Assembly (NCBI GenBank): GCA_964609095.1
Contig: CAZSQN010000004.1
Location: 14,663-78,281, forward strand
Direction: 5' to 3'
DNA: 63,619 bases
Source of the DNA: an uncultured Gammaproteobacteria bacterium
Lineage (GTDB): Bacteria; Patescibacteriota; Patescibacteriia; CAZSQN01
Part shown: one piece after another, positions 1 to 63,619 of the stretch
How positions within the stretch are numbered: position 1 is the first letter of the stretch
How the letters are laid out: each line of letters starts with the position of its first letter
The notes under the pieces: generated by a model
What the model saw: only the letters and a program-made list of their open reading frames with translations
Database searches by the model: none
What the model was told of the DNA's origin: nothing
Made by a program: the position numbers and the translations under genes

Positions 1-47
1 AAATTATGCAAACAAAAAACACGCTCAAGGTCTTGGCGTTGGCCTAC
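1..47. repeat. Exact direct duplicate of 124-170 (last 17 nt of the 5S gene plus 30 nt of its downstream flank)
   Basis: The string aaattatgcaaacaaaaaacacgctcaaggtcttggcgttggcctac occurs at 1-47 and 124-170. The copies bracket a 76-bp insert (48-123) with a ccccgcacc..ggtgcgggg hairpin. Confidence 0.9.
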
Positions 48-153
48 CCCGCACCAGAACAAGTTCGGTGCGGGGCTTCGTTCGCTTCCGCTCACTGCGC
101 TTTCCTTCATACTTTCTACCGATAAATTATGCAAACAAAAAACACGCTCAAGG

Positions 154-273
154 TCTTGGCGTTGGCCTACTTTCCCAGGACCGGGTTGGGTCCAAGTATC
201 ATCAGCGCTGGAGTGCTTAACTTCCGTGTTCGGAAAGGGAACGGGTGTGACCACTCCGCTCGAAACACCAAGA
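154..273 (-). rRNA. rrf: 5S rRNA
   Basis: Reverse complement reads tcttggtg...cccgttccctttccgaacacggaagttaagc...cgccaaga. It is 120 nt with paired termini. Confidence 0.9.
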
Positions 274-325
274 CTCTAAGCGTGTTTGGTTTTATTGCGG
301 TATTTTAAGGAAAAACAATGTAATT

Positions 326-540
326 GCCCAGCACATAAAACATTATGCGCTGAACTTTGTGTTCGTCCATACAAAGTTCACTAAGATTTTGTTTTACAAA
401 ACTTGGATAAATTTTAGTATGGAGAACGGCTTTGCCCAGCACATAAAACATTATGTGCTGGACTACGTGTTCGCCAACGCTTATCCACTAAATTTTGTTT
501 TATAAAACTCAGATGGATTTTAGCATGGAGAACGGCTTTG
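326..540. repeat. Two tandem ~107-bp units in the 23S-5S spacer, each starting with a gcccagcacataaaacattatg.gctg palindrome
   Basis: Units 326-433 and 434-540 align along their full length (both end ..atggagaacggcttt). They share the CAGCACATA/TATGTGCTG motif with elements elsewhere in the window. Confidence 0.85.
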
Positions 541-842
541 TGTTTCAGTGATAAGAAAGCACGACGGATCTATTAGTATGGCTCGGCTCAAACCATTGCT
601 GGCCTTACACCTGCCACCTATCAACCAGATATTCTCTCTGGGATCCATTAGACCTAATCTTGAAGACGGCTTCGCGCTTATATGCTTTCAGCGCTTATCC
701 GTGCCGAACGCTGCTACCGAGCGATGCCCTTGGTAGGACAACTCGTACACAGGAGGTTCGTCCTTCCCGGTCCTCTCGTACTAGGGAAGAGCCTTCTCAA
801 GTCTACGCGCCCACGACAGATAGGAGACCGAACTGTCTCACG

Positions 843-1572
843 CATGTTATTCCATTATTACTAATGGCATGGACTATATCTTCACCCTTTCTCACAGAAA
901 CTTATGAGAGGAGGGGCTGACGTATTATAGTTCTATAAGAACTATCCAGGTTTGATTTCTTATCAAACCTAAGTCTCTACGGGGAAAAGATTTATGTTTT
1001 TCAGAAAACTGATGATAGTTATACTCGTATTTGTCCGTTTTTTTGAATAATTGAATTTTGCCGTTTCATCAACAAGATAACTCAAGCGAATCAATTCCTT
1101 CGGACTCATCTTTTGAGGATGACTATCAATTATGGCTATCATTTTAATAGCCAGAGTTTTCTTTAAACGAAGAAATGGACAAAGAAGCTGTAATGTTTCT
1201 CGTACTTCTTTGAGGCCAACAATTGTATATTCAGTCATTCCGTCCTTTCGGTTGCGGATATAACCGAAGCGCAATTGTTTTTGTAGCCAAGAAAGGATAT
1301 CACGATGAATTGTTTTTTGATAGAACACAACGCTCGTGCGTATTTGGTATCCGTAAATATAATCTTTACGACGTACCAATTGAGCCATTATGCAACCATC
1401 TCCATCGAGAAATCCGGCTATATAAGCCTTATCTTCATTTGACATAAACCTATTCTTCCCTCGGTATTGCCCTCTTGACCAGTTGGTCTATATTTTTGAA
1501 ATCAAGTAGGGTTTCACCGATATTAGTCAGGTTTATTATATCGCATTTCTGCGATAGAACGCAATGTAACTT
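843..1572 (-). mobile_element. Group I-type intron in 23S carrying a LAGLIDADG ORF
   Basis: The conserved exon sequence gggttcagaacgt | cgtgagacagtt is split by 730 nt. The 5' exon ends in U and the insert ends in G. The site lies in the AACGTCGTGAGACAGTT segment targeted by I-CreI-type enzymes. Confidence 0.75.
969..1445 (-). CDS. LAGLIDADG homing endonuclease (single-motif, I-CreI-like size)
   Basis: The 158-aa ORF begins MSNEDKAYIAGFLDGDGCI (LAGLIDADG motif) and lies inside the 23S insert. Confidence 0.9.
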   Translation of the reverse strand: MSNEDKAYIAGFLDGDGCIMAQLVRRKDYIYGYQIRTSVVFYQKTIHRDILSWLQKQLRFGYIRNRKDGMTEYTIVGLKEVRETLQLLCPFLRLKKTLAIKMIAIIDSHPQKMSPKELIRLSYLVDETAKFNYSKKRTNTSITIISFLKNINLFPVET

Positions 1573-1605
<33 letters not shown>

Positions 1606-1885
1606 TGGCGAACAGCCAAACCCTTGGGAGCTTCTTCACCCCCAGGATGCGATGGGCCGACATCGAGGTGCCAAACCTCCTCGTCGATGTGGACTCTTGG
1701 AGGAGATCAGCCTGTTATCCCCGGAGTAGCTTTTGTCCGATGAGCTTCGACCCTCCTATGAGGAGTCGTCGGATCACTAGCTTCCGCTTTCGCGACTGCT
1801 CGACTTGTAGGTCTTGCAGTAAAGCCGGTTTATGCGCTTGCACGTCCCGCTCCGTTTCCATCGGAGCCAAACCGACCTTTGTAAA

Positions 1886-1931
<46 letters not shown>

Positions 1932-2225
1932 ACCAGATACTGTCTCCAAATCCCGATAAGGGACCCAGATAAGAATGAAAGTAACGCAAGGGTGGTGTCT
2001 CATTGGCGTCCCGCATTGCTGCGGAACTCCCACCTACGCTGAACATACGAAACCTTCACCCAATACCAAGTTGTAGTAAAGCTTCACGGGGTCTTTTCGT
2101 CTAGTCGTGGGTAATCCGCATCTTCACGGATCTTGCAATTTCGCCGAGTCCCTCGTTGAGACAGTCGCCGAGTCGTTATGCCATTCGTGCGGGTCGGAAC
2201 TCACCCGACAAGGAATTTCGCTACC

Positions 2226-2819
2226 TTAGGACGATTCTTTTGTGTTAGCTTCTGGTTTCCCAGAAGATCGGACTATATCTTCCGGCCGCTTTTTGCGCGG
2301 TCGCGGTCTAGCGTATAGTCTCTGAGGATTCTCTTTTAGCGATTGATAATAATCGCTAGCTGTATATTTTCTTTTTCTTCCTCTGCCTTCGTTAAGGTTT
2401 TCGCGCAGTGCAATAATATTTTCGAGCCCTTTGGCATTTAGATGCTGATTGGCAGTAACCAGTTCAGCAATCTGCTTGAAGATCGAAAAATTTATTTGTT
2501 TACGCTCTCCGAGGAAACGATACCGTTCAAAGAACGGGATAACCCGCTCTAAGATCGAACGTGGATTGGAAACCACATAGTAATGGATTCCGTCTGGTCG
2601 CGTCTGAAGCCGCCCGCATCCCAAATACCTTTTATAGTATGCCAGGACGCGTCGCTCTTTTTGCGACACATTAAAAGTTAAGACAACTTGCCAGCCCATT
2701 GCATGGTCGTTTCTTTGCCGAAGCGAGACATTGAAACTGCCTTCGCCATCTGCAAAACCGGCTAGATAGTAACCAATGGGTTTGGGAATTTGTTCTAACC
2801 ATGTAAGTTGCTTGCTCAT
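2226..2819 (-). CDS. LAGLIDADG homing endonuclease
   Basis: 197-aa ORF with YYLAGFADGEGSF. Its last codons and stop (..tcgtcctaa) run into the conserved exon sequence gtcctaaggtagcg. Confidence 0.9.
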   Translation of the reverse strand: MSKQLTWLEQIPKPIGYYLAGFADGEGSFNVSLRQRNDHAMGWQVVLTFNVSQKERRVLAYYKRYLGCGRLQTRPDGIHYYVVSNPRSILERVIPFFERYRFLGERKQINFSIFKQIAELVTANQHLNAKGLENIIALRENLNEGRGRKRKYTASDYYQSLKENPQRLYARPRPRKKRPEDIVRSSGKPEANTKESS

Positions 2820-2976
2820 ATTTTTAAGAGTCTTTCCTGCGGATTGTCCGTCACCCCGGTATTATCGGGGATTATTCATCTGATTGTTACTGCTTATTAT
2901 TAAAGCAAGTACAGATGACCTGGACGGAGTTTCCCGCATATAGCTAGATTTTTTTAGATAACTACAATCGTCTGGT
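2233..2976 (-). mobile_element. Second intervening sequence in 23S (intron-like, LAGLIDADG ORF)
   Basis: Exon segments ..ggcgataactataa and gtcctaaggtagcg (I-CeuI-type target region, E. coli ~1917-1931) are separated by ~745 nt. Junctions are uncertain by about 10 nt. Confidence 0.65.
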
Positions 2977-3888
2977 TTATAGTTATCGCCGGCGTTCATC
3001 AGCGCTTAGGTTCAAAGCTGCCTCCCGCATTGCTGCGGGAATGACCTCTCCCCTTAACGTTCTGACACTGGCCAGGCATCAGCCCCTATACATTGCCTTA
3101 CGGCTTCGCAGGGACCTGTGTTTTTGGTAAACAGTCGCTTGGCGTCTTTTGTTGCAACCCCGCTCTTTCCGCACTCCATAGAAAAATTCTTTCGTCTCAT
3201 TGGATTACTACCATTGAGTCGCATAGTAATTCTATGAGGGACAGAAAGAGCGGGGCGGGCCTTATTCCGAAGTTACGGCCGTTGTATTGCCGAGTTCCTA
3301 AACGAGGGTTCTCTCGTACACCTGAGCACACTTATGCCCGTCCACCTGTGTCGGTTTGCGGTACGGTTCCGGTCATGCGTGACCACGAGGTTTTTCTAGA
3401 CTCCACCTTTTTCCGCGTTGTCCGCCTTGCGGCAGACTGCCCGCGCCTTTTTGGTTTATGGCTTTGGGATTTACCTCAAAGCCGCCTTAAAGGCACGGAT
3501 GCATATAACCAAAATACATGCGGAATACGGTAAAGTGTCACCCCTTGGATAACATAATCGGAGTGCAGGAATATTAACCTGCTCTTCCATCGGCTACGCC
3601 TTTCGGCCTCGCCTTAGGATCGACTAACCCTGGGTCGATTTGCGTTGCCCAGGAAACCTTGGACTTGCGGTGGGGATGGTTCTCACATCCCTTTTTGCTA
3701 CTTATGCCAACATTCTCTCTTCCCAACGCTCCAGCGCGGCTTACGCCTTCGCCTTCAGCGCATTGGGAATGCTCTCCTACCAGTCATCCTGATAAATCAG
3801 AATGAATTCTCGTCTTCGGTATTCGGTTTATCCCCGGTTCATTTTCGGCGCGGAATAACTTGACCAGTGAGCTGTTACGCTTTCTTTA

Positions 3889-3926
<38 letters not shown>

Positions 3927-4627
3927 AGTCACTCCACCACCTTTTCAACTTAACCGAAATTTGGGGACCTTAGACGGAGATCTGGGCTGTTTCCCTTTTG
4001 AGCGATGGAGCTTAGCCCCCATGCTCTGACTGCCGGTATATATTCCGGTATTCGGAGTTTGGTTGGGGTAAGTAGGCTTTCGCCACCTCACCCCATTCAG
4101 TGCTCTACCCCCGGAATACTAAAACCGACGCTAGCCCTCAAGCTATTTCGGAGAGAACCAGCTATTACCCAGTTCGATTGGAATTTCTCCGCTATCCACA
4201 GCTCATCCCAAAGTGTTGCACGGCTCACGGGTTCGGACCTCCTCCCGCATTTCTGCGGGACTCATCCTGGCCATGGATAGATCACCGGGTTTCGGGTCTT
4301 GTGAATGCCGCTGGTCCTTGAAATATCAACGTCTCAAAAATTCAAGACGTCAATATTTCAAGGAAATCGCCGGTTAGGACTCGGTTTCCCTGTGCCTTCG
4401 TCCGGTTTGGACTTAGACTTGCGACATCCAACAAACTCGTTGGCTCATTCTTCAATAGGAACGCCATAACCGCTGCTTCGCAGCGGAAATCCGAAATCCC
4501 AAATCCGAAATCCGAATATGTTTCGGGTTTCGTGCTTCGAGTTTCGATATTCCCGGTGCGAAGCACCGGCGTTGACTCCTTGTAAGCATATGGTTTCAGA
4601 TACTATTTCATCGCCCTCACCGGGCTG

Positions 4628-4664
<37 letters not shown>

Positions 4665-5585
4665 ATCGTGGAGAGTATTTAGTCTTGGGACATAGTCGTC
4701 CCGGCTTCCCACAGGGTTTCACGTGACCCATGGTACTTGAGTAAACTGACCGTAGAAGCATAACCCCTTTCGCGTACGGGACTATCACCCGCTCTGGTAG
4801 GCCTTTCCAGGCCTTTCTGCTAGGGAAGTTATTTCCGCCGAAGCGGATTCTTCTACCTCGACTTTATAGGTGCCGAACGCCAATCGCTCGCAACACCCTC
4901 GCGCGCCATAGGGCCTATAACCTTTCTAACGCTTCCGTCCCGCATTGCTGCGGGACTTCCGCGAAAGAAACGCGCAAGAGTTTAGACTGTTCCCCGTTCG
5001 TTCGCCACTACTAAGGGAATACAGCAAACCAATAATCACTCATCCCGTAATTCGCGGGATGGGTGATTAAGATTTGCCATGTTTTTTTCTTTTCCTCTGG
5101 TTACTGAGATGTTTCACTTCACCAGGTGCCTTTCCTGACACTATGTGTTCATATCAGGATAGCCCGATCTTCCATCGGACTGGGTTTCCCCATTCGGAAA
5201 TCCCCGGATCAAAGCTTGCTTGGGAGCTCCCCGAGGCTTATCGCACCCTGCAACGTCCTTCATCAGCTCTCCATGTCGAGGCATCCACCATATGCTCTTA
5301 TGTGTGCTCTCGATCACTGAAACACAAAGACGTCCTCTGTGTTCAGAATTTATATTTTCCCGTTTAGAAGGTTTAGGACTTTTAAACGGGTTGCTAATTG
5401 CATTGTTTTTCCCACTTATGAAGTTAGTTAATAATTCTTGTCAGAATTTTTAGCTAACCTGTTTGTCAAAGTCCGGGCCTTGCTGCTCCTGGGCTTTGAT
5501 ATCCGATTTCCGAGAATCAGAGGCCAAAGGCATGAGCATTACTATGAATTTTGATTTAAAAAACCGCTTGGGACCAAGCGGACTA

Positions 5586-9461: not shown

Positions 9462-10094
9462 TCATTTTTTCTTTTCTCCCACGAGTTCCATCCCTATTCT
9501 GTATTTGGAGCGCATATTCAGTTTAAGATTATAGCGCGGCGCAAGGACGCGGCCGACCGTTTCGGAAACCCCCGGAATTTTATCGTATCTTTCTTCAATT
9601 TCCAAATCCAGCCGTTCAACTGCTCCATTCGGGCCGGCATAAACGACATAGCCAAAAACGACTTCGCAGGTGTTAATGGTTACCGCGTATAACATTTTGT
9701 AAACGCGGAGTGTTGGACGCACGGGACGATAGCCGGTTGCCTCATTTAAAGCGTCCATGGCAGCCGAAGGATAGGCAATATCCAGCGCGGCAAGCGCGTC
9801 TTTCGCCTTCAGGCAATCGGTAATCTCAATTCTTTCTTTGGGGTCGCCGGTTTCTTCCTTAAAAGAAATTCGCGTCTCTCTCGCGGATTTGCCGCCCATG
9901 CGGAAGCATCTGCCGGCGCGCAAAAGCGCCAGATCGTCAGTGTCATAATAAGTGTCGTTTCTGTTAAACGGGCCGTAAAACCAGGCGGCTTTGAGACCGG
10001 GGAAATGCAGCGCTCGAGCGTCGCTTATGAGGCGGTTGAGCTCGGCTTCGGACGGGACGATGTATTTAAGTTCTATTTCGCGGCCTTTGGGCAT
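9462..10094 (-). CDS. CYTH-domain protein (CyaB/thiamine-triphosphatase-like)
   Basis: 210 aa. N-terminal EIELKY matches the ExExK signature. Confidence 0.65.
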   Translation of the reverse strand: MPKGREIELKYIVPSEAELNRLISDARALHFPGLKAAWFYGPFNRNDTYYDTDDLALLRAGRCFRMGGKSARETRISFKEETGDPKERIEITDCLKAKDALAALDIAYPSAAMDALNEATGYRPVRPTLRVYKMLYAVTINTCEVVFGYVVYAGPNGAVERLDLEIEERYDKIPGVSETVGRVLAPRYNLKLNMRSKYRIGMELVGEKKK

Positions 10095-10140
10095 TTGTCT
10101 CTCCTTTGGTTTGTAAATGAACTTTTTATCCTCCTAAATT

Positions 10141-10314
10141 TGCCTCCGAGAGGATTTGAACCTCTAACCCCTTTCAGCGATCCCGATAGGGTGGGCGAGA
10201 GAGGACTCGAACCTCTAAGGCCTTTCAGCCACTGGGTCCTAAGCCCAGCGCGTCTGCCAATTTCGCCACTCGCCCACCTCATCGGGACGCTTTTACCAGT
10301 TCCGCCACGGAGGC
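10141..10314 (-). tRNA. Split type-II tRNA-like gene (halves 10276-10314 and 10141-10191) enclosing tRNA-Leu(TAG) where its anticodon loop should be
   Basis: Acceptor gcctccg/cggaggc (7 bp). D arm tg-gcg-gaactggtaaaag-cgt. T arm agagg-ttcaaat-cctct. Long variable arm similar to the inner Leu gene. The anticodon stem ccgat/atcgg is joined to the inner tRNA by gaggt and ccct linkers. Confidence 0.45.
10192..10275 (-). tRNA. tRNA-Leu (anticodon TAG)
   Basis: gggcgag-tg-gcg..cgc-g-ctggg-cttagga-cccag-long variable arm-agagg-ttcgagt-cctct-ctcgccc-a. No encoded CCA. Confidence 0.85.
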
Positions 10315-10432
10315 AGATTTAAGCTGACAACTTGAAAAAGTATAGCTGATTTTGCAATCAAAGTCCACCATTTGACTGCCGGGCTGAAAAATGGTAATCT
10401 TTCTTATAAAGAGATAATTATACTTTAATTTT

Positions 10433-15560: not shown

Positions 15561-15823
15561 ATAAACGATTTTAAATTGATTTATATCTTAATTATATCAT
15601 AAATAACCCGCACCAAATGGGAGTGCTAAAAGGCAGTAAACATTTAAACACCCCCATCCTAATATAGGATTGTAAAAAATAGCCGGTTTGAGTAAGCCCC
15701 GCACTTATTTTGAGATAAGTACGGGGTAAAATTTGACCCCTTGGGGGGTAGTAGAGCTTTGCTTCACTACCCCCCTTGCAAGGCGGCTTTTGTTTATATA
15801 AGGTATATCGAGAATTATGAATT

Positions 15824-19317: not shown

Positions 19318-19450
19318 GGGGGTTGACCCCAGCACATAGTTTTAGCCTAAAACATCTATTTGGAATTGCAGAGGTAGATTATCAAAGCGCAATTTCATTT
19401 CGCATTACAATAAAACCTCTTTCGCGCCAAAACTATGTGCTGGGTTGACA
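19318..19450. repeat. CAGCACATA family MITE-like element, reverse complement of the copy at 47306-47447
   Basis: ttgaccccagcacatagttttagcc ... aaaactatgtgctgggttgaca. Its reverse complement aligns with 47306-47447 over the full length (roughly 85-90 percent by hand). Confidence 0.85.
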
Positions 19451-22548: not shown

Positions 22549-22662
22549 TGGAGCGGGTAGGGGGAATCCTTTCGCTCCGACTCAAGCCTGGGCGCTCCGC
22601 ACGCGAGCCGACGCCCGTCGGCTCTACTCGCGCCCTTCGATTCCCGTATAATCTTATAATTT
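22549..22662 (-). repeat. tRNA-Gly-linked 94-nt element plus 20-nt duplicate of the tRNA 3' end
   Basis: tggagcgggtagggggaatc occurs at 22549-22568 and inside the tRNA at 22663-22682. The intervening 94 nt is homologous to 62377-62471. Confidence 0.85.
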
Positions 22663-22736
22663 TGGAGCGGGTAGGGGGAATCGAACCCCCGTCATTTGAT
22701 TGGCAACCAAATGTTCTACCATTGAACCATACCCGC
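22663..22736 (-). tRNA. tRNA-Gly (anticodon GCC), CCA encoded
   Basis: gcgggta-tg-gttcaatggtagaac-atttggttgccaatcaaat-gacg-ggggttcgattccccc-tacccgc-tcca. Confidence 0.9.
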
Positions 22737-25335: not shown

Positions 25336-25445
25336 AGTTAGAATGTTTAAAAAGTTAGTTTTTTAAGCCGCAGAATTTTACCTGCCCCGTAGTGAATGCG
25401 GAGCATTCTACTATCGGGGAGTCCTGCGCGATCCCGTACAAGTGG

Positions 25446-25528
25446 TGGGCGAGGAGGGAGTCGAACCCTCACGGTCTTACGACCAACGAATTTTAAGTCC
25501 GTCGTGTATACCATTCCACCACTCGCCC
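25446..25528 (-). tRNA. tRNA-Leu (anticodon TAA)
   Basis: gggcgag-tg-gtggaatggtatacac..gacggacttaaaattcgtt..long variable arm..agggttcgactccct-ctcgccc-a. Confidence 0.85.
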
Positions 25529-25708
25529 ACCATCTGCACGGGGTAAATATATTATTTCGCTACTCGGATCTTATTGCGCATATTGTAGCAAAAAATATAA
25601 AAACACAATAGTCGCATCTGCATAAGGCCAGGCACCACTTCTTGACCCGAAGATTCTTTTTTGTTAGGTTTGATTTAGGTTCTTTTAAAAACGAAAGGAG
25701 AGCAAAAC

Positions 25709-27806: not shown

Positions 27807-29042
27807 TTATTTTGTCAAGCTTAACAGATAAATCTGCCTAATAACTTTTTGCCCCGGTCGTTCATAGATTAGTCCGCCAGACGGACTCACCTTTATATAT
27901 GGAAGGCGGGTAGCGTCTGCCGGAAGAGGCGGGAGGATAACATAAGGAAAGTTTTTTATCTTTTCGGCAACGGGAATTGATATAATTCCGTTCCTGCTCG
28001 CAAATGACGGGAAAATCATAACTGCTTTTCCGCCCGGCTTTAGGATTTTTTCCCAGTCGCGAAGCGCGGCAAAGTAAATTTTTTCAAGCTCTTCCAGCCG
28101 GCGCCGCGCTTCTTCTTCGGACAAAAGCGATTTTTGAATCGGGCCCAGATACGGCTCGGTAATGATGGCGTCAATTTCTCTTTTTTTAAAATGTTTGGAA
28201 ATTTCTTGCGCTGGGGATTGAAAGACCTTGGTTTTCGCCCCGCTTGTTTCGGGAAAGAATCTTTTTACCCAGCTTATATTTTTTTCCGTTCCCTCCGCCG
28301 CGAATTTTTCCAAGTCCGTTGCAAAGATATTTTTATATCCCATGATCATGGCCTCTGTCGCGATTGTGCCAAATCCGCAAAACGGGTCTAAAATCTCGGC
28401 GGATTTATCCGTTCCGGCAAGATTGATCATTATTCTCGCGACTTTTGGCGGCAGGAGCCCTACTTCCATTTCGCGCGCGGGGCGTCCAAAATCGCGGTAA
28501 GAAAATTCTTCAAATTCCTGCACGGCAGTTGTTTTGCCGACATGAATTTTTGGGCCGTCAAAGATTAATAAAAACTCCGCGCCCCGCGTCAATAATTTGT
28601 TTTTGGCAACCACCACCGAGGAAAGAGTCGGCTCACGGCTTATAACATGCCGGGAAGATATGCCCGCTTTTTTTAACCTTGATTTAATGGCTCCGCCAAG
28701 GCCGCGTGTGTTGATTTTTCTGTTGCAGTATGATGAGATGCCGAAAAATATTTTTTTTGCCCCGTACCGAACTTGTTCTGGTGCGGGGTTTCCCGCAAAG
28801 TATCTTTCAAGATAAGAAAAAATAGAATTTTCCAGTTCCATCGCGCCGCTCTCGCCGATATGTTCGCCAATTTTAATCGCGCCGCCAAGCTCATGCATCA
28901 GCCGTTTGGGATCCAGCGGCTCTTTTGTTTCCGCTATTAACGCTTCGGCGCAAGGATAACTGAAATGCGCTTCAGGCATTTTTGCGTAAAGCTCGGCAAT
29001 GGAAAGCGCCGGGCTGCGGCCGAGGATAAAGATATATTTCAT
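27807..29042 (-). CDS. SAM-dependent RNA methyltransferase (Trm11/UPF0020-like)
   Basis: 411 aa. DPFCGFGTIA (motif I) and ITEPYLGP (a (D/N)PPY-like motif IV). Confidence 0.6.
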   Translation of the reverse strand: MKYIFILGRSPALSIAELYAKMPEAHFSYPCAEALIAETKEPLDPKRLMHELGGAIKIGEHIGESGAMELENSIFSYLERYFAGNPAPEQVRYGAKKIFFGISSYCNRKINTRGLGGAIKSRLKKAGISSRHVISREPTLSSVVVAKNKLLTRGAEFLLIFDGPKIHVGKTTAVQEFEEFSYRDFGRPAREMEVGLLPPKVARIMINLAGTDKSAEILDPFCGFGTIATEAMIMGYKNIFATDLEKFAAEGTEKNISWVKRFFPETSGAKTKVFQSPAQEISKHFKKREIDAIITEPYLGPIQKSLLSEEEARRRLEELEKIYFAALRDWEKILKPGGKAVMIFPSFASRNGIISIPVAEKIKNFPYVILPPLPADATRLPYIKVSPSGGLIYERPGQKVIRQIYLLSLTK

Positions 29043-42537: not shown

Positions 42538-43206
42538 CTCTCTTCTCCTTTTCAAAGGTCTTGAACCAATAGTCGCGCGCCTTATTGCCCGCAACCTCGA
42601 TTCAATAAATTTGGAGGCGAATTGCTGTTCTGCAAAATGCGGAACAGTTTTTAACATCGCTTCGCGGATAGAATCAGTATCACCCCGCACTTTTTCCATT
42701 GATATTTTTGTTTTTAGTACGGCAGAAGGCGAAGTTGACTTCGTCTGCGTCTGTACAATAAAAAGTTAAATATCCTTAGAAAAAGTGCGGGGTAAACCGG
42801 TTTTATCTGCCTTTGATGCCGTCCCAAGCCCCTCCAATTTTGGATTTAACTTGGGTCTCCCCTCCATACTTATTGTTACGAATCATGAAGCTTGTCCCGC
42901 CGCTTCTTTAATTTAAAACGGAATAGGCGGGATCCCGCCGTGGCGGGAAATCATGAATCATGGATGTTGAATTTTTTATGAACTTTTCAGTATAGGGCAG
43001 AAACTTAAAAAAGTCAAGCTCCCGCCCTTTTCTCAAAACACCTTCTTGAATGAAGCTGTTTTCAGAAAACTTGCTCGGATTCCAGCCTTACCGAGCATGG
43101 CTACTCCGTTAATAGCCCAACGGAGTCAAAAGGATTCTTCGTAGTTGTAGGAACTAACGTTTACGCCGAAACCCCATCGTGTCCTCCTTGTTTGGCATTT
43201 GCCGAG

Positions 43207-44216: not shown

Positions 44217-44335
44217 GAAAACCTGCCCGAATCCAGCAATGCTGCGGGATTCGGGCAGGATGTCGGCATTGAGGCGGCAAAAAACAAAACCCCGATTGTG
44301 GTCGGGGTTAAAAAAGATCAAAACTTTCTAAAAAA

Positions 44336-47305: not shown

Positions 47306-47447
47306 GTCAACCCAGCACATAGTTTTGGCGCAAAAGCAGTTTTATTGTCATGCAATCTAAAATTGCGCTTTGATAATCTGTCTCTGTGATTCTAAATAAA
47401 TGTTTTAGGCTAAAACTATGTGCTGGGGTCAATCCCGCCCCCCCCCA
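47306..47447. repeat. CAGCACATA family MITE-like element
   Basis: gtcaacccagcacatagttttgg ... ctaaaactatgtgctggggtcaatcccgccc. Confidence 0.85.
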
Positions 47448-61501: not shown

Positions 61502-61709
61502 AATAATTTTATATTCGTGTAAACTATCCATAGTTGGAGGCATTTTTTATTTAGGGCGATTAGCTCCCGCCTCTCTTCCCGCCGCAGATACCATTCGGGA
61601 ATTTAAGCACTTTATGTTCGGCGGGCAGGCAGTCGGTTACCCCAGTACACGAACAAGTTCTGTACGGGGCATGGAGCGCTCGTCTGTACAACCTATGCAA
61701 TGCTCTGGT

Positions 61710-61786
61710 GGGCGATTAGCTCAGTCGGTTAGAGCGCGTCACTGATAATGACGAGGTCCCTGGTTCGATTCCAGGATCGCCCACCA
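61710..61786 (+). tRNA. tRNA-Ile (anticodon GAT), CCA encoded
   Basis: gggcgattagctcagtcggttagagcgcgtcactgataatgacgaggtccctggttcgattccaggatcgcccacca. The leader gctctggt and trailer accagagc are complementary. Confidence 0.9.
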
Positions 61787-61831
61787 GAGCATTGGGGTAG
61801 CTCAGTGGTAGAGTCCCGCACAAATGCCAGG

Positions 61832-61903
61832 GCCAGGGTAGCTCAGTGGTAGAGCGAAGGACTGAAAATCCTTGCGTCGAGAGTTCAATTCTCTCCCCTG
61901 GCA
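61832..61903 (+). tRNA. tRNA-Phe (anticodon GAA)
   Basis: gccaggg-ta-gctcagtggtagagc-g-aaggactgaaaatcctt-gcgtc-gagagttcaattctctc-ccctggc-a. Bracketed by the 10-bp helix cccgcacaaa / tttgtgcggg. Confidence 0.88.
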
Positions 61904-62005
61904 TTTGTGCGGGATAAACTCCGGACTGAAAATTTTACCCCGTACTTCACGAAGTGATAGTATGGGGCCTTGCGTAGCCAGTCCGATTCTGGCCTCCGGC
62001 ACCAT

Positions 62006-62080
62006 CGGGGTGTGGCCTAATGGTAAGGCACTTGCTTTGGGAGCAAGGGATTCCGAGTTCGAGTCTCGGCACCCCGACCA
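62006..62080 (+). tRNA. tRNA-Pro (anticodon TGG), CCA encoded
   Basis: cggggtgtggcctaatggtaaggcacttgctttgggagcaagggattccgagttcgagtctcggcaccccgacca. Confidence 0.9.
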
Positions 62081-62243
62081 TAGATGGAAAAAGCTAAAGC
62101 AGGCCAACTGCTTGGCCTGCGTCGAGACGAGAACGCCGGAGCGATGTTTGGCGAGCTTATGGCGAGTCAAACAGCAAGGCGGTGGCTAGGCCGAGGAGGC
62201 GGAAGCCGACGAGAGCTAAAGCCGAGTCTCGGCACCCCGACCA
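62081..62243 (+). repeat. 142-nt insert plus 21-nt duplicate of the tRNA-Pro 3' end
   Basis: cgagtctcggcaccccgacca occurs at 62060-62080 and again at 62223-62243. Confidence 0.85.
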
Positions 62244-62302: not shown

Positions 62303-62376
62303 GCGGGCATAGTATAATGGTAATACTACAGGTTTCCAACCTGTTGCTGAGGGTTCGATTCCCTCTGCCCGCTCCA
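62303..62376 (+). tRNA. tRNA-Gly (anticodon TCC), CCA encoded
   Basis: gcgggcatagtataatggtaatactacaggtttccaacctgttgctgagggttcgattccctctgcccgctcca. Confidence 0.9.
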
Positions 62377-62490
62377 AAATTATAAGATTATACGGGAATC
62401 GAATGGCGCGAGTAGAGCCGATGGGCGTCGGCTCGCGTGCGGAGCGCCCAGGCTCGAATCGGAGTGAGAGGATTCCCTCTGCCCGCTCCA
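62377..62490 (+). repeat. tRNA-Gly-linked 95-nt element plus 19-nt duplicate of the tRNA 3' end
   Basis: attccctctgcccgctcca occurs at 62358-62376 and 62472-62490. The insert is homologous to the reverse complement of 22569-22662 (about 7 differences by hand alignment). Confidence 0.85.

Positions 62491-62959: not shown

Positions 62960-63619
<660 letters not shown>

Follow-up and report, generated by a model that had tools for sequence, protein, structure and literature searches.

A tRNA-Leu gene nested in the apparent relic of a resident tRNA-Leu gene, one of many tRNA genes nested within tRNA genes in CPR bacteria

How does a tRNA gene come to lie within another tRNA gene, and which of the two is left to function? 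This question is raised by a 174-nt nest on the minus strand (10314-10141) of a 63,619-nt stretch of contig CAZSQN010000004.1 (assembly GCA_964609095.1), hereafter the window, which has groundwater as its source and encodes a RecA with 75-82% identity to those of Patescibacteria (candidate phyla radiation, CPR) metagenome-assembled genomes (MAGs). Along the minus strand, the nest consists of positions 1-26 of an outer tRNA-Leu (GCCTCCG TG GCGGAACTGGTAAAAGCG), a left arm, an inner tRNA of 84 nt, a right arm, and positions 44-76 of the outer tRNA (TCGCTGAAAGGGGT TAGAGG TTCAAAT CCTCT CGGAGGC A). A preliminary description of the locus had offered three explanations, namely a tRNA gene destroyed by an inserted tRNA gene, a split or co-matured tRNA, and a very unusual intron.

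The inner gene (10192..10275, minus strand) is an intact tRNA-Leu(TAG), as had been described. It starts with GGGCGAG and ends with CTCGCCCA, was called by ARAGORN as tRNA-Leu(tag) at 10189-10276(-), and scored 57.2 bits against the Rfam tRNA model over 10192-10275(-) (E 1e-09; gathering score 29). Its anticodon loop, CTTAGGA, has the canonical 7 nt with U33 present, and all type-II features were found, including the variable arm TGGCTGAAAGGCCT, the discriminator A (A73), and a D loop with ..TTGG.. (G18G19). The 3′ end is followed by CCC in the DNA, with no encoded CCA. This gene is presumably the functional one of the locus. A consensus scan identified a promoter-like TGGACT-17 nt-TATACT (10339..10367, minus strand; 9/12 matches) that lies ~25 nt upstream of the 5′ end of the outer gene and presumably drives the whole nest; the motif TGGACT.. 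N16-17 ..TATAYT, followed by (T/C)TTTCAAG, precedes the tRNA at four orthologous loci as well (L124, L127, L128, and L133; comparison loci are cited by such labels throughout). The nested shape is also the predicted fold of the 174-nt strand (−85.8 kcal/mol, z = −5.08), and 0/200 shuffled sequences folded as well.

The nest is real DNA and not an assembly chimera. In four separate groundwater metagenome runs, a Logan contig spans 10144-10600 with 0 differences and abuts a second contig covering 9900-10170, with depths for the two contigs of 68/67, 38/38, and 12.6/13.2 in three runs and 77/47 in the fourth. No alternative allele of the nest locus was found in the lower-identity runs X5-X7. The Logan contigs of all four runs end within the outer T arm and acceptor (10141-10170), where the 27-nt overlap is common to other tRNAs of the community.

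We next consider the outer gene, of which the 5′ part (positions 1-26; 10288..10314, minus strand) retains the acceptor strand GCCTCCG, TG, and a weakened D arm, and the 3′ part (positions 44-76; 10141..10180, minus strand) the variable arm, the T arm, CGGAGGC, and the discriminator A. Two elements of the preliminary description were confirmed without change: the acceptor stem has 7/7 pairs (GCCTCCG at 10314-10308 with CGGAGGC at 10148-10142, and the discriminator A at 10141), and the T arm AGAGG-TTCAAAT-CCTCT has 5/5. Two others held in part. The D arm GCGGAACTGGTAAAAGCG does contain the G18G19 expected, in a stem that is imperfect (2 pairs and a G.A mismatch), and the variable arm TCGCTGAAAGGGGT, which had been called paralogous to that of the inner gene, does have GCTGAAAGG in common with it, along with one G.G mismatch; most of the T arm is likewise common to both genes. 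The scaffold had further been described as apparently complete, which it is not. Positions 27-43 (17 nt) are missing, leaving no anticodon arm and none of the anticodon that a functional tRNA needs. Since splicing cannot restore a tRNA that lacks these positions, the outer gene is a relic and the inner gene the working one. Searches of the outer scaffold with tRNA models, as proposed in the same description, gave a divided answer: in the intact locus the outer gene was undetected both by ARAGORN with intron options and by cmscan at E ≤ 10, and once the inner gene was removed in silico, ARAGORN at a 90% threshold called a tRNA over the two outer halves for almost all of the excision registers.

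The identity of the outer gene can be read from orthologous loci, which were reached through homologues of the downstream CYTH gene (52-63% identity) and exact-protein look-ups. At one of these, L133, an uninterrupted tRNA-Leu(TAG) stands behind the same promoter, with the acceptor GCCTCCG/CGGAGGC. Over the retained parts, the outer halves of the window are identical to this gene at 56/67 positions (22/27 for the 5′ part and 34/40 for the 3′ part), including 7/7 in both acceptor strands and the entire first 15 nt, and the downstream flank AAATTTAGGAGGA equals that of L133 (AAATTTGGAGGAG) but for one additional A. An intact Leu(TAG) at the same locus indicates that the window outer is the old resident gene, with an anticodon that was formerly TAG, and the identity to an intact orthologue means that the outer scaffold is not a product of chance complementarity. 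The first of the three earlier explanations, i.e., a tRNA gene destroyed by insertion of another, is thus the one borne out by comparison with relatives. The other orthologous loci are diverse: L128 has a plain Leu(TAG) gene, L127 and L132 have an intact gene with another acceptor, accompanied in L127 by a pairing leader and trailer and extra hairpins, and L124 is nested as well, around a different inner tRNA-Leu(TAG) with different arms (TTTA-CCCCG...CGGGG) and with a second hairpin insertion in the D loop. A single locus therefore appears, across these sequences, in plain, flanked, and nested states with independent inserts. No relatives were found by a CYTH-neighbour search of GTDB species genomes, and the 3 matches to the promoter pattern in GTDB genomes were all chance.

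In place of the missing positions, the window contains a 107-nt cassette without an open reading frame (ORF), composed of the 12-nt left arm TCCCGATGAGGT (10276..10287, minus strand), the complete tRNA-Leu(TAG), and the 11-nt right arm CCCTATCGGGA (10181..10191, minus strand). The left arm has as pairing partners the right arm and, in the inner tRNA, A73-C-C; the predicted fold joins the arms in a ~12-bp helix continuous with the inner acceptor stem. Inverted-repeat ends (the arms pair over ~11 positions with one mismatch) and multiple copies give the cassette two of the features of repetitive extragenic palindromic (REP) elements and miniature inverted-repeat transposable elements (MITEs). 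A scan of metagenomes for the arm pattern yielded 6 matches, 3 of them chance matches in coding DNA, and viral contigs yielded 0. In L335, 12-nt and 11-nt arms identical to those of the window enclose a tRNA-Tyr(GTA) nested in a tRNA-Tyr, with the same geometry of outer 1-26, cassette, and outer 44-76. Variant arms (TCCCGATAAGGT / GGTATCGGGA) surround tRNA-Val(GAC) in L243, L338, and L339, and in L187, also a Val(GAC) nest, the same TCCCGAT/ATCGGGA stem and the same outer-gene junction are found with different inner arm parts (TCCCGATAGAAAAA). Because identical arms occur around a Tyr nest and variants of them around Val, TCCCGAT/ATCGGGA corresponds to the inverted-repeat ends of the insert, and the earlier assignment of this stem to the outer anticodon arm has to be abandoned. 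A reading of ATGAGGT as the anticodon loop of an outer Leu(GAG) was also ruled out, as the resident gene in L133 is a Leu(TAG) and TCCCGATGAGGT also adjoins tRNA-Tyr. Empty hairpins with the same stem were detected in intergenic DNA (L335:2179-2198 and L177).

The effect of the insert on its target is a 17-nt deletion in the window, with no target-site duplication of the kind that marks DDE-type MITEs; across nests, most targets have changed by −1 to −16 nt, and a few true nests show overlaps of +2, +4, and +7. The two outer halves of the window are not repeats of each other and the insert has no ORF and so lacks the integrase gene expected of an integrative element. In every nest, the leader and trailer of the inner tRNA pair with each other, often taking in the ACCA end, and would probably form a processing stem. 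Taken together, the comparison with L133 and with the other arm-bearing loci identifies the outer scaffold, as far as sequence can, as the dead remnant of the resident tRNA-Leu(TAG) of this lineage, with its anticodon arm replaced by the 107-nt cassette, and we consider it very likely that the outer gene is a relic split by a cargo-bearing cassette.

The locus is not a one-off; it belongs to a large family in which tRNA genes are nested. To survey this family, we scanned GTDB with one genome per species for two D-loop motifs 15-45 nt apart, a spacing at which tandem tRNA genes are impossible. A Leu D-loop motif gave at least 35 matches with an intact inner tRNA-Leu amid many coding repeats; many matches to this motif were set aside as glycine- or alanine-rich coding repeats, simple tandem 5′ duplications, or N-gaps. 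The common motif TAGCTCAGYTGG gave at least 130 matches, at least 108 of them with an intact inner tRNA. Isotypes, anticodons, and insert sites are reported here among the matches listed. The isotypes found with TAGCTCAGYTGG were Lys, His, Val, Thr, Ala, Arg, Met, Phe, Asn, Ile, and Gly. At least 52 nests were clean, i.e., had a T arm and an outer 3′ end pairing with the outer 5′ acceptor strand; at least 33 of these came from genomes labelled as Patescibacteria, and others from lineages including Ignavibacteriota, Bacteroidota, Elusimicrobia, Lentisphaerae, and Planctomycetota. Nests were also present in long-read and closed genomes (L037, L119, the latter from CP066682). For at least 43 candidate outer 3′ ends, pairing with the outer 5′ acceptor was complete (7/7), in a search that also yields some chance matches.

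The inner anticodon equalled the outer anticodon in all assessable nests (39/39), the outer anticodon of the other 13 being deleted, split, or changed by one base, and no clear case of a nest joining two amino-acid families was found. Most cargo-bearing inserts lay at positions ~19-27 (D loop or 3′ D stem) or ~32-37 (anticodon loop). Arm families recurred across isotypes and phyla, including CCTGCCCGCC..GGCAGGCGGG, CCCCG..CGGGGTAAATGCCGCA, TCACCCCGTTA..TAACGGGGCAAG, and TCCCG(AT)..(AT)CGGGA, and many outer genes had further hairpin insertions in the anticodon loop or T loop. In a stringent self-similarity test of 35 CPR loci, a fragment of the tRNA itself adjoined 42/92 tRNAs. Overall, the nested arrangement is ordinary for this genome and widespread in CPR bacteria.

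Nests can also be stacked. In a Patescibacteria MAG, L243:6431-6795 forms a four-layer tRNA-Val(GAC) nest, found identically in the JGI assemblies L338 and L339, in which three units of [outer 5′ part + left arm] are followed by one intact tRNA-Val and three units of [right arm + outer 3′ part]. The outermost layer differs from the others in its acceptor and T stem, the same 5 nt (CATCG) are missing from every outer layer, and the junctions are identical in all layers. Two separate tRNA-bearing inserts within one outer gene were observed in L225 (two extra tRNA-Val(TAC)) and L250 (two tRNA-Thr(TGT)), and up to three insertions (D arm, anticodon loop, and T loop) in L069, with other multi-insert outer genes among L016 and L067.

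Comparisons between nests further indicate that outer genes decay and inner genes are conserved. The whole anticodon arm is missing from the outer genes of the window, L335, L162, L100, L037, L059, and L050, and the outer 3′ half has been lost entirely in L155 and in two other nests of the window, those of tRNA-Leu(TAA) and tRNA-Ile. Between L037 and L100, the inner genes are identical at 83/83 positions, and the outer genes show A7.C66 and T-stem mismatches along with a G1.T72 pair. Between L235 and L242, the inner genes are identical at 73/73 positions, the arms differ by one base on each side, and the outer acceptors differ, one of them through uncompensated changes. In L238, a Val-type outer gene has a point mutation of its anticodon from GAC to GAT.

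Counterparts of these nests were identified in phages. In three IMG/VR contigs, L341 (Val), L350 (Arg), and L353 (Phe), outer positions 1-19 or 1-26 are followed by a spacer, an intact tRNA, an ORF of 110-147 aa, and outer positions 44-76, with 7/7 matches in the outer acceptor. Here the anticodon arm is replaced by tRNA and ORF, together in L350 with the 3′ part of the D arm. A fourth contig, L344, has the ORF, and no outer 3′ part was found in it. The four ORFs are mutual homologues with an HNH-like motif in common (C..CGYDK..LEFHH.D..LC.NCH); matches to Pfam HNH were weak (L350, E 2.5e-4; L341, 2.9e-3, below the curated cut-off) or absent (L344 and L353). The L350 ORF has homologues in 386 cultured-phage records, frequently in tRNA clusters; one of them is gp262 of Cronobacter phage CR3, which is free-standing between intact tRNA genes of a tRNA cluster, and no split tRNA was found around the homologue in that phage. 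In phage T4, the homing endonuclease SegB recognises a motif conserved in tRNA genes, and repair of the cut co-converts neighbouring tRNA genes (PMC2330249). The phage HNH version suggests a homing-type spread of the cassettes; the mechanism in bacteria is not established. Of two hallmarks of homing, an endonuclease gene inside the mobile segment or adjacent to it was present in L341, L344, L350, and L353 and absent from the window and the bacterial nests examined, and the occurrence of the same insert or junctions in different alleles, together with an empty allele in relatives, was observed in bacteria (L133 for the empty allele; L235/L242, L243, and L187).

How such an arrangement would work and spread can be proposed as follows. 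At the RNA level, the old promoter would give one precursor of ~200 nt, in which the outer halves are predicted to pair together and the arms to form the ~12-bp helix that extends the inner acceptor stem. RNase P and 3′-end processing would then release the inner tRNA, with CCA addition required because the gene encodes CCC and not CCA, and the outer halves would be by-products. At the DNA level, we infer that the cassettes may be selfish 'replacement cassettes' that invade essential single-copy tRNA genes, where an insertion would be tolerated without an intron because it brings a working copy of the same isoacceptor. A nuclease would cut the intact tRNA gene and repair would copy the nested allele, the homology arms being the conserved sequences of the D arm and of the T arm and acceptor. 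As these homology arms are the tRNA itself, the cassette would be restricted to genes for the same tRNA. In bacterial copies, the nuclease gene may have been lost or may act from elsewhere, and a nuclease that re-cuts the new inner copy could add another layer. Homing of this kind would explain why junctions are identical in all layers, why 5′ and 3′ units are equal in number, why relatives have empty alleles, and why the same cassette occurs in different alleles.

Several observations weigh against this account. In the window, neither the cassette nor any of the 30 ORFs scanned encodes a nuclease, integrase, transposase, or reverse transcriptase; none of the bacterial nests examined has an ORF separating the inner tRNA from the outer 3′ part; and tblastn searches of the phage HNH protein against the window and bacterial loci returned phage matches only. 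None of the RNA runs contains the window locus, and the runs listed for the L243 nest share with it only generic tRNA words (8%). The perfect acceptor stem and T arm kept by the window outer point to either a recent event or an unseen constraint. The occurrence of identical arms with different cargo (Leu in the window, Tyr in L335), each matching its host gene, is explained by neither homing nor transposition. Finally, cargo-free hairpins with the same stems or GC-rich arms lie in intergenic DNA (L335:2179-2198, L177, and window positions 47-75, 15697-15726, 28760-28788, and 44222-44259) and in the 23S gene (3158-3255), which would also suit an element that transposes in REP- or MITE-like fashion. 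Spread by homing rather than by transposition is the weakest part of the account, and we give it slightly less than an even chance. For the account as a whole, a relic and a replacement cassette that spreads by homing-type gene conversion is probably the best explanation.

The alternative that such hairpins favor keeps the relic and the replacement cassette and has the cassette move by REP- or MITE-like transposition, in which an enzyme from elsewhere (for example a HUH/RAYT-type or other transposase that recognises hairpins) inserts hairpin-bounded DNA into the loops of structured RNAs and the same-isoacceptor rule is a survival filter, mismatched insertions being lethal where tRNA genes are single-copy. 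This would fit the occurrence of the same arm families with many isotypes, the clustering of insertions in the D loop and anticodon loop, and the combination of identical arms with different cargo. However, it would not lead one to expect small target deletions with no target-site duplications as a rule, or junctions that are identical in every layer of L243. No transposase is encoded among the 30 window ORFs, the phage versions bear a homing endonuclease and not a transposase, and a pure filter would waste most insertions. We regard transposition as unlikely, if the least so among the alternatives to homing-type replacement. It is much harder to see the outer scaffold as functional, whether as a split or co-matured tRNA, as had been suggested, or as a tRNA-like scaffold that stabilises or guides processing of the inner tRNA. 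The perfect acceptor stem and T arm, the complete acceptor pairing of the candidate outer 3′ ends described above, and the strongly stable predicted fold are all compatible with such a role, and each of the two arm differences between L235 and L242 turns a G-C into a G.T with the pair kept, which hints at RNA-level constraint on the arms. Nevertheless, decoding is impossible without an anticodon arm, the D stem and variable arm of the window outer contain mismatches, and the relatives L128 and L133 do well with a plain gene. Elsewhere, equivalent outer genes have irreplaceable losses, uncompensated mismatches, further insertions, or the L238 anticodon mutation, and in L155 and the Leu(TAA) and Ile nests of the window no 3′ half remains. 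TyrRS and ValRS require the anticodon, yet the Tyr and Val nests have the same architecture. A functional outer scaffold is thus very improbable.

Still less can be said for an RNA-level intron (group I or bulge-helix-bulge) that contains a tRNA and whose splicing regenerates the outer gene, the third of the earlier suggestions. The position in the anticodon region and the stable helix at the base of the insert would suit an intron, and some outer genes, being interrupted several times, recall the multi-intron tRNAs of archaea. Against this, cmscan of 10050-10420 matched no Rfam intron family at E ≤ 10 and no group I core was found, a group I catalytic core would not fit into 107 nt, and no bulge-helix-bulge was seen at the junctions when read by eye. 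The 63-kb window encodes neither a splicing endonuclease nor RtcB among the 30 ORFs scanned. Above all, exon nucleotides are missing (27-43 here and CATCG in L243), such that no excision regenerates a tRNA, and we find the intron scarcely credible. A one-off accident with no mobile element, through template switching between paralogous tRNA-Leu genes or chimeric assembly, would draw on the GCTGAAAGG and T-arm sequence common to inner and outer gene and on the ends of the Logan contigs at 10144-10170, in a repeat common to other tRNAs. It is contradicted by the presence of the same DNA in four runs, contiguous over both junctions, by identical arms in the unrelated tRNA-Tyr nest of L335, and by the existence of >50 nests with recurrent arm families, including those in the long-read or closed genomes L037 and L119, and can practically be dismissed.

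Beyond the nest, the window offers a view of how common such remnants are within one genome, since a relic of an earlier copy is present at 7/7 of its tRNA genes. The tRNA-Leu(TAA) nest (25371-25569, minus strand) has its inner gene at 25446-25528, with TTTACCCCGTGCAGATGGT as left flank and, after CCA, CTTGTACGGGA as right flank. Its outer relic keeps the 5′ part (25548-25569) and the anticodon arm CAGGA-CT|TAAAA-TTCTG, which a 39-nt hairpin (25381-25419) splits between T33 and T34, and the 3′ part is gone. The tRNA-Ile(GAT) and tRNA-Phe(GAA) genes are both nested (61554-62004, plus strand). The outer Ile 5′ part is in three pieces (61554-61566, 61631-61639, and 61674-61679) with two hairpin insertions between them, which together equal the first 28 nt of the inner gene, and the outer Phe comprises 61795-61813 and 61923-62004; its arms are TCCCGCACAAATGCCAGG / TTTGTGCGGGATAAACTCC, and another hairpin lies at 61934-61967. 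The genes for Pro (62006-62243, plus strand), Gly(TCC) (62303-62490, plus strand), and Gly(GCC) (22549-22736, minus strand) are each followed by 94-143 nt and then by 20 nt that repeat their own 3′ end exactly, the 94-nt segment behind both Gly genes being one element (~90% identical).

Palindromic REP/MITE-like elements lie at 47-75, 15697-15726, 28760-28788, 61640-61669, 44222-44259, 42683-42797, 328-461, 19328-19444, and 47311-47427. They include hairpins of ~29 nt (CCCCG[CT]AC..GT[GA]CGGGG), one CCTGCCCG..CGGGCAGG hairpin, an element of ~110 nt (CACCCCGCAC..GTGCGGGGTAAACC) without a tRNA inside, and an element in three window copies (CCCAGCACATAG..CTATGTGCTGGG); the ends of these palindromic elements match the arm families of tRNA-bearing cassettes. 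Some right arm ends (..GTGCGGGGTAAACCG, ..GCGGGATAAAC..; window 42783-42797 and 61904-61922, L235, and L242) resemble the 3′ half of the type I-E CRISPR repeat (..CGGGGATAAACCG), a likeness that may be a coincidence among GC-rich hairpins with A-rich tails. The rRNA regions (154-5311 and 62960-63619, minus strand) contain a 23S gene of 3816 nt, compared with 2925 nt for the model, with ~900 nt of insertions including a LAGLIDADG ORF (2226-2819) and the hairpin insert at 3158-3255 (ends CCCCGC..GCGGGG). A second LAGLIDADG ORF (969-1445) lies between the 5S and 23S genes, and the 16S gene is ~57 kb from the 23S, i.e., the rRNA genes are unlinked.

We then asked how the nest relates to known systems. 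Among the nearest are the free-standing homing endonucleases of phages (T4 SegB, and HNH proteins in the tRNA clusters of T5-like phages and Vequintavirinae; 'intronless homing'), which likewise target a tRNA-gene motif. In intronless homing, however, the endonuclease gene lies between intact tRNA genes, whereas the insert of a nest lies within a tRNA gene and includes a replacement tRNA, and bacterial copies are ORF-less. As Reiter in 1989 and Williams in 2002 are said to have reported, integrative elements target tRNA genes and leave tRNA gene fragments. Such elements measure kilobases, contain an integrase gene, and bring along the 3′ part of the tRNA alone, with a tandem and not a nested result (van der Gulik et al. 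2023, PMC9897764). Insertion into a tRNA gene, preservation of one working copy, and a displaced fragment left behind are common to both, and the Gly and Pro genes of the window even reproduce the integrative-island layout in miniature, with 20-nt direct repeats around 94-143 nt. The nest differs in its 107-nt insert, which has no integrase, brings a whole tRNA, keeps both outer halves, and is not bounded by direct repeats.

Archaeal tRNA genes, some of them with non-canonical or multiple introns and others split or permuted, are disrupted in the D, anticodon, and T regions as well, and their introns have been proposed to transpose between tRNAs (PMC4090602, PMC4390854, PMC10714607). The nests resemble these in the regions that are interrupted and in the complementary flanks that hold the pieces together. 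In archaea, an endonuclease and a ligase splice one functional tRNA, whereas the outer gene of the nest is unrestorable, function comes from the inserted copy, no bulge-helix-bulge was seen, and the host is bacterial. Group I introns occur in the anticodon loops of bacterial tRNAs, e.g., tRNA-Leu(UAA), and spread by homing. The insert in the anticodon region is a likeness to these introns, and the differences are the lack of a ribozyme core, the insert being itself a tRNA, and replacement in place of splicing. With REPs and MITEs, the cassettes have in common short GC-rich inverted-repeat ends, the lack of an ORF, many copies per genome, and empty intergenic versions; nests differ in having no target-site duplication as a rule. 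To our knowledge, REPs and MITEs do not carry a tRNA gene or sit within a gene for the same tRNA. Lastly, Ponchon and Dardel reportedly described in 2007 an engineered tRNA scaffold in which a foreign RNA takes the place of the anticodon arm and the acceptor, D, and T arms remain. The nest has the same geometry (outer 1-26 and 44-76), the scaffold being a laboratory construct. Overall, the nest lacks a defining feature of each of the natural systems above, and has in common with phage homing and integrative elements an entry that leaves one functional copy.

Full-text literature searches turned up no account of one tRNA gene nested in another, in line with the earlier remark that no bacterial example was known, and the class as a whole appears to be undescribed. 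As a tentative proposal, which we hold with rather less than even confidence, these 'tRNA replacement cassettes' may represent an undescribed selfish class, ~100-130 nt long, hairpin-armed, ORF-less, and with little beyond a tRNA gene, which invades genes for its own isoacceptor, possibly guided there by homology or pairing of the cargo, builds matryoshka layers, and drives constant tRNA turnover and horizontal replacement across Patescibacteria and some other phyla, as an alternative to self-splicing introns.

If correct, this would add a third way for mobile DNA to enter an essential gene, by bringing a whole spare copy, alongside self-splicing (introns and inteins) and the rebuilding of a 3′ end (islands). 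The phage contigs with the same architecture and an HNH ORF would connect the nests with homing endonucleases for which tRNA genes are the recognised target. For annotation, tRNA finders call the inner gene alone, the fragments may be miscalled, and nests would tend to fragment short-read assemblies and to escape tRNA annotation. The nest would also be a natural counterpart of the engineered tRNA scaffold, in which the processing of such precursors is open to study in a natural system. Most broadly, it would imply that tRNA genes in CPR genomes have been replaced repeatedly, probably across strain and species borders, which bears on the stability of the translation apparatus in reduced genomes.

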